Positions 23,269 to 32,392 of a stretch of DNA of 64,000 nucleotides are shown piece after piece. A program made the translations under genes and the position numbers. Where the stretch lies: the NCBI GenBank assembly GCA_038146705.1, contig JAYQSB010000001.1:7166-71165 (forward strand), in the 5' to 3' direction. The notes beneath the pieces are model-generated. The model did no database searches, was not told the DNA's origin, and saw only the letters and a list, made by a program, of their open reading frames with translations. Position 1 is the stretch's first letter, and each line of letters begins with the position of its first letter. The DNA comes from Candidatus Poseidoniales archaeon (GTDB lineage Archaea; Thermoplasmatota; Poseidoniia; Poseidoniales; Poseidoniaceae).

Positions 23269-24042
23269 TTGGGTAGAAGGCATGAAGAAAAAGTCGATGC
23301 AGAGGAACTTGCACGACTTGAAGAGGATGGAGGTCAAGGTGAGACCAACATTCGTGTCAAAATGCCAGACAAGCGAATCAATGAAATGTTCGCTCTAGCA
23401 AAACAAATTCTTGGGGGTCGCCGAGTAACCGTACTCTGTGAAGATGGCGAAGAGCGAATGGCAAGAATTCCCGGGAAAATGCGACGTAGGCAATGGGTCC
23501 GTGAAAACGATTTGATTATTGTGTGGCCATGGGATTTTCAACCATCAAAAGCAGATGTAAAACACCGTTATACGAAAACTCAAGCAATGTACCTCTCCCG
23601 TAAGGGTCTATTAAACGAGGTCGTCGATGATTTCGGCATGGATGTTAGGGTTGAAGAGGAGGGTGATGACGACCTCTTCGCCTCCAGCGTCATGCCTCTT
23701 GAAGAAGAAGATGATGAGATGTTCTCCGAGGGCCAAGATGATATGGCTGCTTCTGATGAAGATGAAGACGATTTGTTTGCAGCTGATGACAATGAAGATG
23801 ATATGTTTGCATCTGGTGACGAAGAAGATGATTTATTTGCACCTGATGATGAAGATGACGACATCTTTGCGGAAAACAACGAATCAGAAGCAGATACGAG
23901 TGATTCATCAGCCGAAAATGCTCATGAGACCCCCGAGGAAGAAGAGGTCTTTGTCGTCAAAGAAGAGTATCCCGATGAAGAACATGCTTTAACGGAGTCA
24001 GACGACGATGATGATGACGATATCGATGCACTTTTTTCCTGA
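23269..24042 (+). CDS. eif1a: Translation initiation factor aIF-1A with a roughly 140-aa acidic repetitive C-terminal tail
   Basis: Core IRVKMPDKRINEMFALAKQILGGRRVTVLCEDGEERMARIPGKMRRRQWVRENDLIIVWPWDF...HRYTKTQAMYLSRKGLL aligns by eye with archaeal aIF-1A (S1/OB fold). TTG start with GGAGGT upstream. Confidence 0.9.
   Translation: MGRRHEEKVDAEELARLEEDGGQGETNIRVKMPDKRINEMFALAKQILGGRRVTVLCEDGEERMARIPGKMRRRQWVRENDLIIVWPWDFQPSKADVKHRYTKTQAMYLSRKGLLNEVVDDFGMDVRVEEEGDDDLFASSVMPLEEEDDEMFSEGQDDMAASDEDEDDLFAADDNEDDMFASGDEEDDLFAPDDEDDDIFAENNESEADTSDSSAENAHETPEEEEVFVVKEEYPDEEHALTESDDDDDDDIDALFS
23764..23883 (+). repeat. Four tandem 30-nt (10-codon) imperfect repeats inside the aIF-1A tail
   Basis: Units gaagacgatttgtttgcagctgatgacaat, gaagatgatatgtttgcatctggtgacgaa, gaagatgatttatttgcacctgatgatgaa and gatgacgacatctttgcggaaaacaacgaa encode EDDLFAADDN, EDDMFASGDE, EDDLFAPDDE and DDDIFAENNE. 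Confidence 0.85.
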
Positions 24043-25805: not shown

Positions 25806-27617
25806 TCAATCCGTTGTTTTTCTCTGCCATCGTGAAATAAAGAAACCAGCCAAAACCAGAACGAGTATCGATGGAGCAAAAGAAGGTACAGAGCCAGGAT
25901 TATTGATTGAGGCTCCTGTAACGACGAGATAGTGGTAGTTGTTTGCTTCATTGAATTCATCTATCACGTTCACGTGGTCAATCGTTAGCCGCAGGTCAAA
26001 CTGTCCGGTGTTTGGAACCGTGTAATTCCAAATCAGTGTGACATTGCCTGCTTCTTGACCACTAACGGTAACTGAACGAGTTTCGAGCACAGTCCACGAA
26101 ACAGAAGCTGATCTGTCCGCTGGAGCAGATTCAAGTCGAACCATGACCGTTCCACCAAATTGTTTGTTGTGTTCAAGGACACTTGTAATCGTGATATTTC
26201 CTGAGCGTTCGCCCGGCCGAACAATAATTCTGTCAATGTTTGTCTCCGACAAATTCCATGAGAAATCAATGGATGGGAGAATTTGGAAGGCCGAAGATTC
26301 TGTGGTGAATGAATTTGATGCATTATCAAATATCACTGCTCGGACCATCAGGTATTGGCGTGATTTTGAAGCCCAGTTTGATAATCCTACTTGAGCATCA
26401 AGACCATTTGTTCCGACTGTAATCCATCGTCCAGATAAATCAGGAACATCACCGACACCGTTCCTGTCAAAGCCGTATTGAATGTAACTCGATGAATCAT
26501 CGATGCCCGAGAAAGCATCAAATGCGACTGCGCTCACATTCGCCAGTCCTTGACGGTCAGTTTCTAGCGGGTCAACAATCCATTCGTCGAATTCTGGTGC
26601 AGAAGTATCAACGTTAATGGAAATGAGTTGTTCAATACCAACATTGCCAACCCGGTCCACAGCTCGAATCGAGATGTTCGTTGTACCTTCTTCAAAAGTC
26701 AATGTCACAGAATCACTTGTCGTTTGCGTCCACATCGAATCTGTTGGAAGTTTGTATTCGACATATGATACCCCAGAACCAGTTCCGTCAGAGATTGCAG
26801 TTTGCAATCCTGAAATAGTGATTGATTCAGAGTTTTGCCAACTGGAACCGGAACCGATTGTTAACGTGCCAATGGTTGGTGGAGTTCGATCGATGCCGAT
26901 GTAAATCACTTCGGTCGTCGTGTAGCCTGAATAATCGTAAACGGTGAGTCGAGGGCTCCAAATTCCTTCACTCATTGCCCCGCTCGCCCATGTCCATCCA
27001 TAATTTATGCTTGAAGGACCATCAGTTGAGGGCGTGCCCGGACCTGGTACCGCAGTGAGCGTGGCTTGTTTGAGGTCGTCATCCGAAGCCTGCCACGAAA
27101 AACTGATGCTACCGTTTGCCTCAATATTGTACCATGCTCGGTCAGTGCTTGATTCACCAGTTCCGTAGGATGGATTGAGTGCTTCAAATTGAGTGATAAT
27201 TGGAACTTGATTGACGATTGAAAACGTTTCACTGAATGCAACAACAGAATCACTTACATCACTGTCCCAAAGCGTTGCTCTCAACACATACGTATCATTG
27301 GCATGCAAAGTTGAATCAAAATATGTAATCCAAGGTGATGATGTGATGTTTTTCACAGTTGTAAAAGATGCATTGTCATCAGATATTTCAACAAGAATTG
27401 ATGCGGCTGTGCCGGTTCCACTCACTGTAAAAGACAGAACCATCGAGCCAGTTACTTCTTCATCTGCCTCAGGTGCACTGTTGAATGCCAAATCAAGACT
27501 TGAAGACGTAGGACGAACCTCGCCATCACCGAGATATTGCATTTCATTTGGGAGGGTGCTGGCAAATGTCGTGATGAGCAATAGCAGGACCAAATGCATG
27601 GACACATACCGGCTCAT
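25806..27617 (-). CDS. Secreted, C-terminally anchored surface protein (Ig-like/CARDB-like modules)
   Basis: Signal peptide MSRYVSMHLVLLLLITTFAS. CARDB-type end motif NVIDEFNEANNYHYLVV. C-terminal TM plus basic tail SILVLVLAGFFISRWQRKTTD. Confidence 0.75.
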   Translation of the reverse strand: MSRYVSMHLVLLLLITTFASTLPNEMQYLGDGEVRPTSSSLDLAFNSAPEADEEVTGSMVLSFTVSGTGTAASILVEISDDNASFTTVKNITSSPWITYFDSTLHANDTYVLRATLWDSDVSDSVVAFSETFSIVNQVPIITQFEALNPSYGTGESSTDRAWYNIEANGSISFSWQASDDDLKQATLTAVPGPGTPSTDGPSSINYGWTWASGAMSEGIWSPRLTVYDYSGYTTTEVIYIGIDRTPPTIGTLTIGSGSSWQNSESITISGLQTAISDGTGSGVSYVEYKLPTDSMWTQTTSDSVTLTFEEGTTNISIRAVDRVGNVGIEQLISINVDTSAPEFDEWIVDPLETDRQGLANVSAVAFDAFSGIDDSSSYIQYGFDRNGVGDVPDLSGRWITVGTNGLDAQVGLSNWASKSRQYLMVRAVIFDNASNSFTTESSAFQILPSIDFSWNLSETNIDRIIVRPGERSGNITITSVLEHNKQFGGTVMVRLESAPADRSASVSWTVLETRSVTVSGQEAGNVTLIWNYTVPNTGQFDLRLTIDHVNVIDEFNEANNYHYLVVTGASINNPGSVPSFAPSILVLVLAGFFISRWQRKTTD

Positions 27618-27754: not shown

Positions 27755-30535
27755 ATGCAGCAGAAGAGAGGAGTGCTTCTTGCATGTTTATTCCTACTCC
27801 CACTTCTCGTCCATACGAGTTCAGCCGAATCAAGTGGAAACATTGAATCATCATCTGCACAACTTGACATGACGCCAAATCAACCTGTTGTCGGCGGTGA
27901 GGCGACCTTTTCCATCATCCTCACAAACGTTGGGACCGTCGATGTTTTTGGTGTTGATTATGCATTCCACCAGAGTGACAAAAATGGAAATTTACTAGGG
28001 GGCAATGTCATTGATATTCAGGCAGGGGCTTCAGAAATCGTCAGTGCATCATGGTCTAATCTCCTCGAAGGCGAACAACGACTTTGGTTCCGATTCACCG
28101 ATGCTGGGTCGAGCGATGCTTGGTTTTACTATGATTTCAATGTCTTAGGCTTACCAACACTACGAGTAATGGACATCCAAACCACACCGTCTGAATCAAT
28201 TCGTGCTGGAGATTCGATTGAGGTCGCAATGCGAGTCAAAAATACGGGTACAATCGATGCGGAGCAAAGCACCCTCCTCCTCCAAGTACCCGACCAGACA
28301 GACCAGTATCTTTCGACACCCGCACTAGCCGCAGGTGAAGATACGTGGCTCAATGTCTCTACGATTGCACCACAAACCGGAACTCATGAGATCATTGCAA
28401 CTCCAGATATTAACAACGATATCGAGGAGGGTTCAGAAACAAACAAAGCAAAAACACTCCAAATCACAGTCGTTCCTCACATGGATTTATACTTCAAAGA
28501 TGGTATTTCAATTACAACCGTTGGCAATGTTTTCGAGGGACCATGGAGTGTTTCTGGAACGTTGGTTCGGAGTAATGGTGAGGGAACAACCACAGTTTCA
28601 CTTCAACTCGAAATACCAAATCCAACAGGCGGTACACTTAGGACGAATCATTTCCAGGTCACTTTGTCAGGTGGCACGTTGGTTGAGCAATCGTTCACGA
28701 ACGAATTCTCGCTCGATTCACTTCCTCCGGGCCAACATCTTGTAACTGCAAAAATCAATTCAATCAATGATGCAGGAATTGTACAAGAACGAACGGATAA
28801 TGATATGACGACAACGACATTGAACATCAGTGAAGTCCCAGATGTTGTCTTGGACCCTCCAATTGCAAATCTAACCTCAGTTGACGCAGGTGAAAGTGTA
28901 TCTTGGTTGATGACGATCACAAACAATGGTGATTTAGATGTGAGCGGCTTTTTGTATTACAAATTCGATGACGGCCCTGTCCTTTCGATTCGTATTGCAC
29001 CATTTGATGCTGGAAAAACAGAATTCATTGAAGTTGAATTAAATGCTGGCTTAGGGCAGCATATTGCAGTCTTCAACGCTTCATGGGTTGCAGACCAAGA
29101 CAGTTTTGATGCAGATTTGTCCAACTCTGTATCAACAGGATCAATCAATGTCAATTCCCCATTGAAACTCAAATGGGATTACGCCTCATTGCAAGTTCTC
29201 GACGAAGAAGGAGAAAATGCAACATTCCCTCTCAGGCATGGAAATATGTATACTCTTTCAATCGATGTAACAGCAACATCGTCAACGGGTCCAATCAACA
29301 TGACATGCATCGATGAACAAGGTGACACAGATGTTATCGTTTCACTTTCGATTGACGAAGAAAGAGAACGAAAAAATATCCAATGTCAATTTATGGCATT
29401 AGCCTCAATTTCAAACATTAAACTCATTCCTGACAACACCAATGCCATTGATTCTCTTTCAAGATCTTACCAAACCATTAACCCAAATGGAAACAATGCA
29501 GCAGGTGATGCATCTTCCTCTGGAACTGCGACAATCCTAGGATTCAGTGCATTGGCTCTCGTCGGTATACTCATTGCAGCATTTTTGCTCACTCGTGAGA
29601 GAGAAGAAGAAGTTGAGCGCGACATTTTTGATTATTGTCCTGCTTGTGATGGAGAACTAGAAGGCGGCGAAGACCGTTGTCCACATTGTTCATTTAATTT
29701 GAAGAAAGCAAGGAATCAATTTCACGATTGTCATGAATGCGGTGAGTCGATCCCCGATCTTATCGAGAATTGTGCATATTGTGGAGCCATTCAAGATGTC
29801 GCCTCATTCTTTGAACGCCGCGAACGAAGAGAACCAAAGGCTCCAAAAACATTCATCGCACTACCAGAAGATGAAGAAGACGACGAAGATGAAATCGTTA
29901 CAGGTCAAGAAAACTTCGATGAAACAATTCGAGAATTCGGATTTGATGAAGAGCAACTTGAGGAAGAATGGGATGAAAACATTGAAGCTGCTGAAGCAGA
30001 AGTTGAAGCTGCATACGACCGAAGATACGCAGATGTGATTGCTGAAGAAGAAATGACTGAAGAAGAACTTGAAGCATACAAATCTCAAGTGACCACAACT
30101 ATTCGGAAATCGTCCTCCGCAGACCATGACATTGATGCGATTATCAGAGGTAAGAAATCGATGAAGGCTGTTAAGGAAGACGATTCAGAACTCTCTGCCT
30201 CTGATGCTGATATCCGAGAACAACTCTTCGAAATTACCGGTGAAGAAGGTGTACTGCCAGGTGAGAAAGTGCAAGTAGGCATGCAAATCAGTGATTCTTC
30301 TCTCGCAGGAAATGAAGTTCAAGAAGCATCAATGGACTTTACAATTGAAGAAGATGATCTTCCTATGCCCAAACCCGATGAGGATATTGATGACGAATTA
30401 ACACCAAAGCGAAATCGCCCCAACCGAAGAAGGCCTGCTCAACGAAAGAAAGCGACAGCTGAATGTGGTGCATGTGGTGCTGAGATCGATGCAAATTCGA
30501 ATGAATGCAGCGTTTGTGGTGCTCAGTTTGAGTGA
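27755..30535 (+). CDS. Type I membrane surface protein: CARDB-like ectodomain, TM helix, acidic cytoplasmic tail with three zinc ribbons
   Basis: Signal peptide GVLLACLFLLPLLVHTSSA. Modules with LTNVGTVDV, VKNTGTIDA and ITNNGDLDV. TM TATILGFSALALVGILIAAFLLT. Cys pairs CPACDG..CPHC, CHECGE..CAYCG and CGACGAEIDANSNECSVCG. Confidence 0.8.
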   Translation: MQQKRGVLLACLFLLPLLVHTSSAESSGNIESSSAQLDMTPNQPVVGGEATFSIILTNVGTVDVFGVDYAFHQSDKNGNLLGGNVIDIQAGASEIVSASWSNLLEGEQRLWFRFTDAGSSDAWFYYDFNVLGLPTLRVMDIQTTPSESIRAGDSIEVAMRVKNTGTIDAEQSTLLLQVPDQTDQYLSTPALAAGEDTWLNVSTIAPQTGTHEIIATPDINNDIEEGSETNKAKTLQITVVPHMDLYFKDGISITTVGNVFEGPWSVSGTLVRSNGEGTTTVSLQLEIPNPTGGTLRTNHFQVTLSGGTLVEQSFTNEFSLDSLPPGQHLVTAKINSINDAGIVQERTDNDMTTTTLNISEVPDVVLDPPIANLTSVDAGESVSWLMTITNNGDLDVSGFLYYKFDDGPVLSIRIAPFDAGKTEFIEVELNAGLGQHIAVFNASWVADQDSFDADLSNSVSTGSINVNSPLKLKWDYASLQVLDEEGENATFPLRHGNMYTLSIDVTATSSTGPINMTCIDEQGDTDVIVSLSIDEERERKNIQCQFMALASISNIKLIPDNTNAIDSLSRSYQTINPNGNNAAGDASSSGTATILGFSALALVGILIAAFLLTREREEEVERDIFDYCPACDGELEGGEDRCPHCSFNLKKARNQFHDCHECGESIPDLIENCAYCGAIQDVASFFERRERREPKAPKTFIALPEDEEDDEDEIVTGQENFDETIREFGFDEEQLEEEWDENIEAAEAEVEAAYDRRYADVIAEEEMTEEELEAYKSQVTTTIRKSSSADHDIDAIIRGKKSMKAVKEDDSELSASDADIREQLFEITGEEGVLPGEKVQVGMQISDSSLAGNEVQEASMDFTIEEDDLPMPKPDEDIDDELTPKRNRPNRRRPAQRKKATAECGACGAEIDANSNECSVCGAQFE

Positions 30536-30683: not shown

Positions 30684-31217
30684 ATGGTGCGAAGAATTAC
30701 AATCATCGCAGCCATGTTAATGCTCACGACCTCAATGCTAAGCGGGTGCATGGGCCTTATTCTCGCACGAGAGTCAATCGAAGAACTCAGAGAACCAGCA
30801 ATTCCGAGCATACGATATGAAAAAATATCGATCTCACAAGTATGGGATACTATAGAAGCACAACCATTTTCTTCAAGGCAGACATTCATTGTTGATGACT
30901 CGACCAACCGCATCAGCATCTATCTAAAAGTGAATTTCAACGCTCCACCGCTCTTGAATCAGACCCAATTTGTACGGGCTTCTCTCACGGATGCGGAAGG
31001 CGTTGTTCAATGGCAAGAAGATGTAAGTTCAGATTATGAGCCAACAGAAAAGCAACTTTTACCAGCACCCTCGTTCGCGATGGGCGAATGGGTACTTAAT
31101 GTTGAAGCACGTGGATATGGAGAGAGTTTTGTCAACCAAATCAAAGACGAATTCAGTTTACGTGTTACTATTGAAAAATCATGTATTCAATATCCACTTG
31201 AGGAGAGTTGCTTCTAA
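30684..31217 (+). CDS. Putative lipoprotein, unknown function
   Basis: N-terminal MVRRITIIAAMLMLTTSMLSGC contains a lipobox-like LSGC. Confidence 0.55.
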   Translation: MVRRITIIAAMLMLTTSMLSGCMGLILARESIEELREPAIPSIRYEKISISQVWDTIEAQPFSSRQTFIVDDSTNRISIYLKVNFNAPPLLNQTQFVRASLTDAEGVVQWQEDVSSDYEPTEKQLLPAPSFAMGEWVLNVEARGYGESFVNQIKDEFSLRVTIEKSCIQYPLEESCF

Positions 31218-32392
31218 ACAAGTCGCTCAGGACAAGCATGTGCCCTTGAACAATTTTTACATTTACCTATACGCTCATGATTTCTATGGGTTTCACCAGA
31301 CACCATGGCTTGATGAATCTCTTTGATTCGAGTTTCAAGCAGTTGTCTGTTTTCATTGTTCCATAAGACCTTGAACACTTTTTCATTGCCATAATTAATC
31401 ACACCATAGGATGGAGTATGGCCAGTTGAACTTTCCACGAGTTTGAGATACGATAGAACTTGGAGTTTGTGGCTATCGTGAGGGAATCTTGGTGGCTTCC
31501 CAGATTTTTGTTCAACTGGAATAAATTCTTGGTCGATAATGACAATTTGATTGGGCCGCCCACGCAAGCCAGATTCGCGGTCAATGAGTAATGCTTCTTT
31601 CGTATGTTCAGAATCTGCATAGACGACTTGCGTTCCTAAATCGATGCCAATGACGGTGCTCAATTTGATCATCTGTTCGTGAGCGACTAATGCTTTTTTG
31701 AGACGATGCGTAGCAAATAAAGTCCAAAGGAGCGCTGTGATGGTGAGAATGAATGCAGCTTTTTCTCTATCGTCAGCCCATTGTAACGCAATCGAATGTA
31801 GTGCTAAGATGATAGCACCAAAGAGCAATGTCGATTCGATTCTTCCTCCTTCAAACCAACCCCCAATGAAATCAGGTGGTTCAAAAATTGGTTCGATGAC
31901 AGCCGGGTTATCATTCTTCGACTTCTCTAGATCAATCCAACTTCGCCAAGGTAAAAGGATTGTTAGTATGGCGAGTATCAGTGAACTGAGTGCCCATAGT
32001 GCGAGATATCTAGTCACTTCGTTTGTTTTTGCTTGAAAATTTTCAATATTGAGAAAAACAAATCCATCGATACAAAGAATGACGACAACCCCAACCCACC
32101 ATGTCCAAATCTCAAGATTTCTCCGCTCACGAAGTTGGTTTTCTGTGAGTTCCAAAGCCGCTTTTGAAATTTCTTCGTTTCGTTCAACACCCTCAGTCAA
32201 TGGTGTTCCTTCTCCGATGATTCCACTTTTTGACAGTGCCCATGATAATGGGCAATATGTGAACTTCTCCACATCGCTTGCACTGACTTCAAGAACTTCT
32301 CCCGAATCTGTTTGGAAATATCCAGCCTCATTTGGAGATGCTTCACTTATCTGATAGACCACGGCCAAGCAAGCATCCCCCCAAGTTTTCAT
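31214..32392 (-). CDS. Cas4/DUF83-like PD-(D/E)XK nuclease with four inserted transmembrane helices and a 4-Cys Fe-S signature
   Basis: N-terminal SASDVEKFTYCPLSWAL (Cys47). Core LRGRPNQIVIIDQEFIPVEQKSGK and QVLSY. C-terminal CKNCSRAHAC (C-x2-C-x5-C). Four hydrophobic helices between aa 95 and 230. Confidence 0.65.
   Translation of the reverse strand: MKTWGDACLAVVYQISEASPNEAGYFQTDSGEVLEVSASDVEKFTYCPLSWALSKSGIIGEGTPLTEGVERNEEISKAALELTENQLRERRNLEIWTWWVGVVVILCIDGFVFLNIENFQAKTNEVTRYLALWALSSLILAILTILLPWRSWIDLEKSKNDNPAVIEPIFEPPDFIGGWFEGGRIESTLLFGAIILALHSIALQWADDREKAAFILTITALLWTLFATHRLKKALVAHEQMIKLSTVIGIDLGTQVVYADSEHTKEALLIDRESGLRGRPNQIVIIDQEFIPVEQKSGKPPRFPHDSHKLQVLSYLKLVESSTGHTPSYGVINYGNEKVFKVLWNNENRQLLETRIKEIHQAMVSGETHRNHERIGKCKNCSRAHACPERLV

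Follow-up and report, generated by a model that had tools for sequence, protein, structure and literature searches.

The 64,000-nt stretch of DNA analysed here (hereafter the window; Candidatus Poseidoniales archaeon, GenBank assembly GCA_038146705.1, contig JAYQSB010000001.1, positions 7,166 to 71,165 of the forward strand) carries on its minus strand, at 31214..32392, a complete coding sequence of 392 aa plus stop, whose product, P0001, is by its sequence an integral membrane protein belonging to the PD-(D/E)XK iron-sulfur (Fe-S) nucleases of the Cas4 (DUF83) family. In the reading that we favour, with modest confidence, P0001 is a membrane-anchored Cas4 protein that faces the cytoplasm, whose nuclease activity has been lost or strongly weakened in this lineage and which has been retained for a non-catalytic role. 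Two transmembrane (TM) hairpins, four helices in all, are inserted between an N-terminal element, consisting of the first cluster cysteine and the helix that normally bears a metal-ligand histidine, and the first strand of the nuclease core; the two halves would re-form a single Cas4 domain on the cytoplasmic face of the membrane, carried on a stalk of two helices that extend TM1 and TM4. In the Poseidonia subclade to which the window belongs, the equivalents of His62 and Asp99 of the solo-Cas4 protein Sso0001 are both asparagine, and metal-dependent DNA cleavage would have been lost or strongly weakened there. The activity for which the protein is kept would then most likely be an Fe-S-dependent binding or tethering of DNA on the membrane's inner side.

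An earlier note on this DNA, made from the letters alone, had described a Cas4/DUF83-type Fe-S PD-(D/E)XK domain interrupted by four TM helices, and that description is borne out by profile searches, a spliced alignment and structure models. The open reading frame (ORF) and the motif residues it named (C47, N281, E294/K296, QVLSY and C378/C381/C387) lie where it had placed them. The N-terminal Cas4 segment (aa 30-92; 32117..32305, minus strand, as for all features of P0001 below), delimited by the spliced alignment to TIGR00372 and by profile alignments to 4r5q and 8d3l, holds the His-type helix and C47, which aligns with the first cluster cysteine of Cas4 and lies within SASDVEKFTYCPLSWAL (nt 32252-32254). 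The PD-(D/E)XK core and C-terminal Fe-S motif (aa 250-392; 31217..31645), recognized by PF01930 and by Foldseek, contain the retained (D/E)xK motif as E294-Q-K296 (31505..31513), the retained QxxxY motif as Q311-VLS-Y315 (31448..31462), and the three C-terminal Fe-S ligands in CKNCSRAHAC, C378-x2-C381-x5-C387 (31232..31261). All four cysteines, E294, K296, Q311 and Y315 are invariant among 87 Poseidoniales sequences.

Membership in the Cas4/RecB-like nuclease fold is supported at the level of the domain by two profiles. The Cas_Cas4 profile PF01930 matches at 41 bits (cut-off 22.7; E 2.8e-10), over aa 260-387 only, and the PDDEXK_1 profile is likewise above threshold at 27.6 bits. Against TIGR00372 the native protein scores 57.8 bits, below the 65-bit equivalog cut-off; when residues 93-246 are removed, the alignment covers positions 3-179 of 180 and rises to 60.5 bits, still less than 65. 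A phmmer search of the PDB sequences with full-length P0001 returned nothing significant, and the equivalences to proteins of known structure come from a search of the PDB sequences with the family profile. In those alignments the cysteine of the YCP motif (C47) pairs with the first cysteine of Pcal_0546 (4r5q) and of the type I-C Cas4 (8d3l), the family G-x-x-x-H pairs with the histidine of the same two proteins, the family GRPD pairs with GRAD of Sso0001 (D99), E-x-K pairs with E113/K115, and S-H308 pairs with His146 of Pcal_0546. The RecB-type catalytic set is complete in other members of the family but incomplete in P0001, where the aspartate is N281 and the N-terminal histidine is N72.

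Models of the protein suggest how a split domain can be accommodated. In the AlphaFold2 model of P0001 (predicted local distance difference test, pLDDT, 80.8; predicted TM-score, pTM, 0.73) all four hydrophobic segments are helical, and two unbroken helices, 63-115 and 209-248, lead from the nuclease domain into TM1 and from TM4 back into the nuclease domain. The best Foldseek matches of the core are the Cas4 structures 8d3l and 7mi5, with Cas4-Cas1, Dna2 and MGME1 also matched, and the core alone gives a TM-score of 0.50 over 148 columns. A relative with two TM helices, P0143, stands in as an indirect test for P0001: its model (pLDDT 86.5, pTM 0.81) superimposes on an entire type I-C Cas4 chain from one side of the hairpin insert to the other, over 289 columns and with a TM-score, normalised to the 218-residue target, of 0.67. 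Because this superposition spans the insert, the N-terminal piece occupies its Cas4 position and the split halves rebuild one fold in the models. So modelled, the four cysteines, one N-terminal and three in C-x2-C-x5-C, would form an Fe-S site of the Cas4 type.

The four hydrophobic helices that the earlier note had placed at about aa 95-230 are evident in Kyte-Doolittle hydropathy as well as in the model. TM1 (aa 95-115; 32048..32110; mean hydropathy 1.86) contains D109 and is continuous with the N-terminal helix; TM2 (aa 128-147; 31952..32011; mean 2.01) is followed by the invariant P148-W149-R150. A predicted cytoplasmic loop (aa 148-184; 31841..31951), modelled with low confidence, contains the invariant residues P168, P172, G177-G178-W179 and G183, and leads to TM3 (aa 185-204; 31781..31840; mean 1.61), with the invariant E186 and the near-invariant H199, and to TM4 (aa 212-229; 31706..31759; mean 1.67), which runs on into the nuclease core. 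Averaged over the 87 Poseidoniales sequences, lysine and arginine number 3.55 before TM1, 3.74 after TM2 and 2.74 after TM4, all predicted to be cytoplasmic, against 0.30 in the outer TM1-TM2 loop and 1.05 in the outer TM3-TM4 loop. Helix counts in the family are always even, at 2, 4 or 8. This charge pattern and the even counts fit a protein with both termini inside, and we infer an N-in/C-in topology in which four TM helices carry a Cas4 domain that faces the cytoplasm.

The membrane module is conserved in ways that go beyond hydrophobicity. WW98-99, PWR148-150, GGW177-179 and E186 are invariant, and polar residues within or at the membrane helices are kept in nearly every sequence (D109 in 82/87, E186 in 87/87, H199 in 84/87); D109, E186, H199, PWR148-150 and GGW177-179 together suggest that the insert may be more than an anchor. 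The idea that the two hairpins represent an internal duplication was rejected, as the hhalign comparison of hairpin 1 with hairpin 2 was not significant (E 0.07 local, 0.67 global); the local alignment, itself not significant, sets D109 opposite H199. A 481-aa member from Poseidoniaceae, P0121, carries an insertion of ~85 residues with a CNEC motif in the predicted outward TM1-TM2 loop, which suggests that the outer loop can host an extracellular domain.

The earlier note had aligned Asn281 by eye with the first catalytic aspartate, and the pairing of GRPD with GRAD of Sso0001 places it there. At this position (codon AAT, in GRPN; 31550..31552) aspartate is found in all 77 of the other Poseidoniales sequences and in every phylum-wide member inspected. 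A second active-site change had escaped notice: residue 72 (codon AAC; 32177..32179), the equivalent of Sso0001 His62, is asparagine in place of a histidine that is likewise present in 77/77 other Poseidoniales and in the phylum-wide family. The two changes travel together. Among 80 species representatives, 76 have histidine and aspartate (H/D), four have two asparagines (N/N), and none has the mixed H/N or N/D state; the N/N pair is therefore found in five Poseidonia species, the window genome and the four representatives, and is absent from 76 other Poseidoniales species. In 20 further Poseidonia species, two (G090 and G048) read GVERN...GRPN like the window, and the remaining 17 with both motifs readable are H/D.

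Of the positions 100% invariant in the 77 other sequences, the N/N clade has changed just two, by H72N and D281N; compared with P0010, its closest H/D sister, it has one further unique change, Q211K. The tree joins the N/N sequences into one group, nested with P0010 in a well-supported clade whose stem, at 1.36 substitutions per site, is the longest internal branch among Poseidonia; by this topology the N/N pair arose once, within this long-stemmed clade. Each change takes one nucleotide (CAY to AAC and GAY to AAT), the asparagine codons are kept in all five N/N species amid synonymous variation in the neighbouring codons, and every N/N genome holds a single copy of the gene. The suggestion in the earlier note that D287 might substitute for the missing aspartate does not hold, as D287 is a hairpin-turn residue between strands 282-286 and 289-296 and, in the phylum-wide family, D, N, G, K and E all occur at its position. 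A distant member, P0128 (a 299-aa fragment with ~38% identity), reads GVRGRPN and so also has asparagine at the catalytic-aspartate position; it may represent an independent second loss, although as a single truncated sequence it could be an error.

The N/N clade shows no sign of relaxed constraint. The ratio of nonsynonymous to synonymous substitution rates (dN/dS) is 0.092 for the window against locus L089 (dS 0.53), 0.139 for L045 against L046 (dS 0.17) and 0.040 for L045 against L047 (dS 1.5), and H/D pairs at similar divergence give 0.05-0.13, equal to the 0.04-0.14 of the N/N clade. Constraint extends over all three parts of the protein, namely N-terminal piece, membrane insert and core. 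The gene is thus under strong purifying selection in the N/N clade, as it is in catalytically intact relatives, and if cleavage has indeed been lost or weakened, this selection implies a function of the protein for which cleavage is not required.

How far cleavage has been affected is judged from the metal sites of characterized proteins. PMC12501428 and PMC13621843 give His62, Asp99, Glu113 and a backbone carbonyl as the metal ligands of Sso0001, and Asp123, Glu136, the backbone carbonyl of Ile137 and His146 as those of Pcal_0546; the D99A mutant of Sso0001 is without nuclease activity (PMC3466216). As the aspartate is a ligand in both structures and is asparagine here, DNA cleavage by P0001 has probably been lost or much reduced. 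The earlier note had held that activity may be altered; the site is indeed changed, but two coupled changes, histidine and aspartate both to asparagine, suggest that catalysis has been lost or strongly reduced and not just slightly changed. That both ligand equivalents are asparagine while the cysteines, ExK, H308, QxxxY and the membrane module are conserved also argues for a loss or strong weakening of cleavage. DNA would remain the ligand of P0001.

Several points weigh against this reading. E294 and H308 are intact, and the side-chain carbonyl oxygen of asparagine is still able to ligate Mg2+ or Mn2+. Pcal_0546 uses the downstream histidine and not the N-terminal one (PMC12501428). With the intact residues and the ligating capacity of asparagine, this precedent makes residual or altered activity possible. 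The solo-Cas4 protein of M. mazei cleaves DNA without a recognisable RecB motif (PMC12501428), which shows that motif-based inference in the Cas4 family can fail. The alignment of the N-terminal histidine depends on weak local scores (3.9 and 6.4 bits) plus motif position, and dS is saturated for several pairs, so that the case for selection depends on those pairs whose dS is 0.17-1.5.

P0001 could, in other words, still be an active nuclease that binds its metal through E294, the backbone carbonyl of Q295, H308 (31469..31471) and the side-chain carbonyl of Asn281, possibly with a changed metal preference or a lower turnover. We consider this unlikely, while taking it seriously: H308 is invariant, as are E294, K296, Q311 and Y315, and it aligns with His146, a ligand in Pcal_0546 according to PMC12501428; purifying selection on the core is undiminished (dN/dS 0.041, L008 versus L011); and the asparagine codons are fixed in five species while flanking codons change synonymously. 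Set against this are the complete conservation of aspartate at residue 281 everywhere else that was inspected, the inactivity of Sso0001 D99A and the abolition of activity by the equivalent mutation in AddB (PMC3466216), and the joint change of two metal-site residues without an H/N or N/D intermediate, which fits abandonment of the site better than fine-tuning.

The distribution of the gene bears on what the protein might do. A word search recovered 877 full-length homologues from Poseidoniales, all of ~390-410 aa, named in databases "Dna2/Cas4 domain-containing protein" or "CRISPR-associated protein Cas4" and all with a precomputed PF01930 match. The gene is present, in one copy each, in 130/201 Poseidoniales species genomes, including every listed Poseidoniaceae genome, and is absent from the genera of Thalassarchaeaceae with genomes of 1.3-1.6 Mb; in these streamlined genomes the flanks (HxlR-HTH-HTH-Dus-rpS2-lipoprotein; HTH, helix-turn-helix) are intact and the Cas4 gene is cleanly missing. 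Within Poseidoniales the order eIF1A, RIO1, KH, two surface proteins, lipoprotein, membrane-Cas4 gene, rpS2, Dus and regulators is kept at 45% protein identity, and the gene is vertically inherited, single-copy and chromosomal. Across the phylum, 216/301 Thermoplasmatota genomes carry a relative, with colinear full-length matches in ORFs of ~280, 320-350 or 500-700 aa; members include WP_015283263.1 from the cultured Aciduliprofundum sp. MAR08-339 and one from a Methanomassiliicoccales genome. Between Thermoplasmatota families the gene neighbourhood is not conserved, and it contains no defence genes.

Nor is there a link to CRISPR. The earlier note had reported no cas genes or repeats in the window, which is correct (the sole tandem repeat, at 23735-23870, is a coding acidic repeat), and the whole 2.04-Mb genome, 94.8% complete, contains neither a Cas1 match nor a CRISPR-like array and has a single PF01930 match. 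The family is without connection to CRISPR, and P0001, encoded outside any CRISPR-cas locus, counts as a solo-Cas4. To our knowledge, Poseidoniaceae lack CRISPR. Membership in another defence system was considered and dropped, as PADLOC and PHROGs match the Cas4 domain only, and viral carriage was likewise rejected, no relatives being found among IMG/VR viral contigs.

An innate defence or DNA-uptake device, in which a nuclease stationed at the membrane cuts or processes entering DNA and of which the N/N form would be a decoy, a sensor or a lost function, strikes us as improbable; DNA uptake or defence against entering DNA at the envelope was the role that the earlier note had suggested. It would suit a genome without CRISPR-Cas, a location at the site of DNA entry and a gene dispensable enough to be lost in streamlined genera, and Cas4-family proteins do take part in non-CRISPR defence, for instance with cyanobacterial Argonautes (PMC12094033). 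However, a single copy strictly fixed among rpS2, Dus, eIF1A and RIO1, a dN/dS of 0.04-0.14, presence in every listed Poseidoniaceae genome, PADLOC matches confined to the Cas4 domain, the lack of relatives in viral contigs and a neighbourhood that is unconserved across the phylum and free of defence genes all speak against it; vertical inheritance, housekeeping synteny and low dN/dS in particular are not what a typical defence gene would show. A role that is housekeeping in character yet dispensable is suggested instead by the constant position, the single copy, the low dN/dS and the absence of the gene from viruses and defence islands.

That the hydrophobic block is no membrane domain, or that we are dealing with a pseudogene in decay or an artefact of annotation, is highly improbable: the merely moderate hydrophobicity of TM4 and TM3 (1.67 and 1.61) is outweighed by a single-copy intact frame in >130 genomes, a dN/dS of 0.03-0.18 in the insert, the invariance of the helices and of WW98-99, PWR148-150, GGW177-179 and E186, the positive-inside pattern, the even helix counts and the confident models, and decay was rejected on dN/dS and the intact frames.

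Comparison with known systems sets P0001 apart from its relatives. CRISPR Cas4 (PF01930/TIGR00372; 8D3L, type I-C; 7MI4, a Cas4-Cas1 fusion) provides the best sequence and structure matches of P0001 and shares with the family the N-terminal cysteine plus C-x2-C-x5-C, G-x-x-D...(D/E)xK and QxxxY. P0001 differs in residing in a genome without Cas1, Cas2 or an array, in its ~160 inserted residues with four TM helices, in falling under the TIGR00372 cut-off, and in having asparagine for the histidine and aspartate ligands in the Poseidonia lineage. The solo-Cas4 proteins (Hudaiberdiev et al. 2017, PMC5704561; Sso0001, 4IC1; Pcal_0546, 4R5Q; M. mazei) also lie outside cas loci and are common in archaea, and the motifs of P0001 pair residue for residue with those of Sso0001 and Pcal_0546; the three characterized examples, however, are soluble enzymes of ~200 aa with demonstrated nuclease activity, Sso0001 being a decamer, whereas P0001 is membrane-integral and, unlike Sso0001, lacks the D99 and H62 equivalents.

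That a Cas4 fold can lose its catalytic residues and be kept for DNA binding has a precedent in the nucleocapsid protein TP1 of TTV1, an inactivated, DNA-binding Cas4 derivative (PMC4625639). The Cas4 gene of TTV1 is also split between the first cysteine and the other three (PMC4625639), but P0001 is a cellular protein that keeps the four cysteines and ExK/QxxxY, and it is interrupted by membrane helices rather than divided into two genes. The 'iron staple' proteins AddB, Dna2 and AdnAB have the same RecB-like core with one cysteine before and three after the nuclease domain (PMC3466216); they are parts of large soluble helicase-nuclease machines, in contrast to P0001, which is membrane embedded and has no helicase domain or neighbour. 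A membrane-embedded Cas4 was not found described in the literature that we searched, and the phylogenomic survey of Cas4 (PMC5704561) does not mention a transmembrane form.

The neighbours of the P0001 gene are rpS2, Dus, HTH regulators and surface proteins. A functional partner was sought in this neighbourhood and rejected, since the neighbours are housekeeping genes and the context is not conserved across the phylum. At 30684-31217 on the plus strand lies a gene for a 177-aa protein with a lipoprotein-type signal (…MLSGC…) and without a family match, convergent with the Cas4 gene and overlapping its stop by 4 nt. In streamlined Poseidoniales without the Cas4 gene, rpS2 directly follows this lipoprotein gene on the same strand, so that the Cas4 gene, read from the other strand, splits a lipoprotein-rpS2 pair. 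The abutting lipoprotein gene is retained where the Cas4 gene has been lost and is therefore no obligate partner. Large surface proteins of the CARDB/Ig-like type are encoded by two genes, at 25806-27617 (minus strand) and 27755-30535 (plus strand); one protein, of 926 aa, has a TM helix and, after it, cytoplasmic double zinc ribbons and an acidic region. Both CARDB genes are missing from the block, along with the Cas4 gene, in the small-genome genera of Thalassarchaeaceae. At four loci of other Thermoplasmatota families (L031, L033, L035 and L037) the gene for a TPD-motif protein (PF14811, E 7e-43) immediately precedes the membrane-Cas4 gene in the same orientation, and GlmS is convergent downstream.

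A related architecture, probably bacterial, is seen in proteins of ~172-179 aa in which one N-terminal TM helix precedes a Cas4 core without the N-terminal Cys/His element (P0233, P0235, P0238, P0244, P0250-P0252, P0256 and P0260; P0250 is from Anaerolineaceae); in many of these the cysteine in QLAAYC might be the fourth ligand. The window genome also encodes, on another contig (G000:C24, L132 1162-2328, minus strand), a soluble PDDEXK_1 nuclease of 388 aa in which His, Asp, D-x-K and Q...Y are intact and which has a C...C-x3-C-x5-C set; its gene adjoins that of a DEDDh (DnaQ-like) exonuclease, and further PDDEXK_1 domains occur in large ORFs on contigs C2 and C25. Elsewhere in the window, 23269-24042 (plus strand) encodes a homologue of translation initiation factor 1A with a C-terminal tail of ~130 aa made of acidic repeats, (D/E)n-[LMI]-F-[AS], to which the tandem repeat at 23735-23870 corresponds (TRF, Tandem Repeats Finder; period 30, 4.5 copies). 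A scan for sigma-70 promoters and terminators gave nothing above shuffles, a sigma-70 scan not being applicable to archaea.

Solo-Cas4 proteins occur in most archaea, and few archaea are as abundant in the surface ocean as Poseidoniaceae. To the question of what solo-Cas4 proteins do, the present family adds a clue of location, a Cas4 domain built into the membrane, in a form that is conserved across Thermoplasmatota and universal among the sampled Poseidoniaceae. For genomes without CRISPR, the database name "CRISPR-associated protein Cas4" is misleading. The N72/N281 clade amounts to a natural experiment: two metal ligands given up under unchanged constraint imply a selectable function beyond cleavage. 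It is tempting to speculate, though we hold the idea to be somewhat doubtful, that the conserved job of the phylum-wide membrane-Cas4 family is not DNA degradation but a structural or sensing function of a membrane-coupled, Fe-S-containing DNA-binding module. Were this true, such a module might, for example, tether or monitor DNA (the chromosome, DNA ends or incoming molecules) at the cytoplasmic membrane; the hairpins with D109, E186 and H199 would be a functional part of it and not a mere anchor; and the N72/N281 clade would be a natural separation-of-function mutant in which catalysis is dispensable for that job. The member from the cultured Aciduliprofundum (WP_015283263.1) makes biochemistry on the family feasible.

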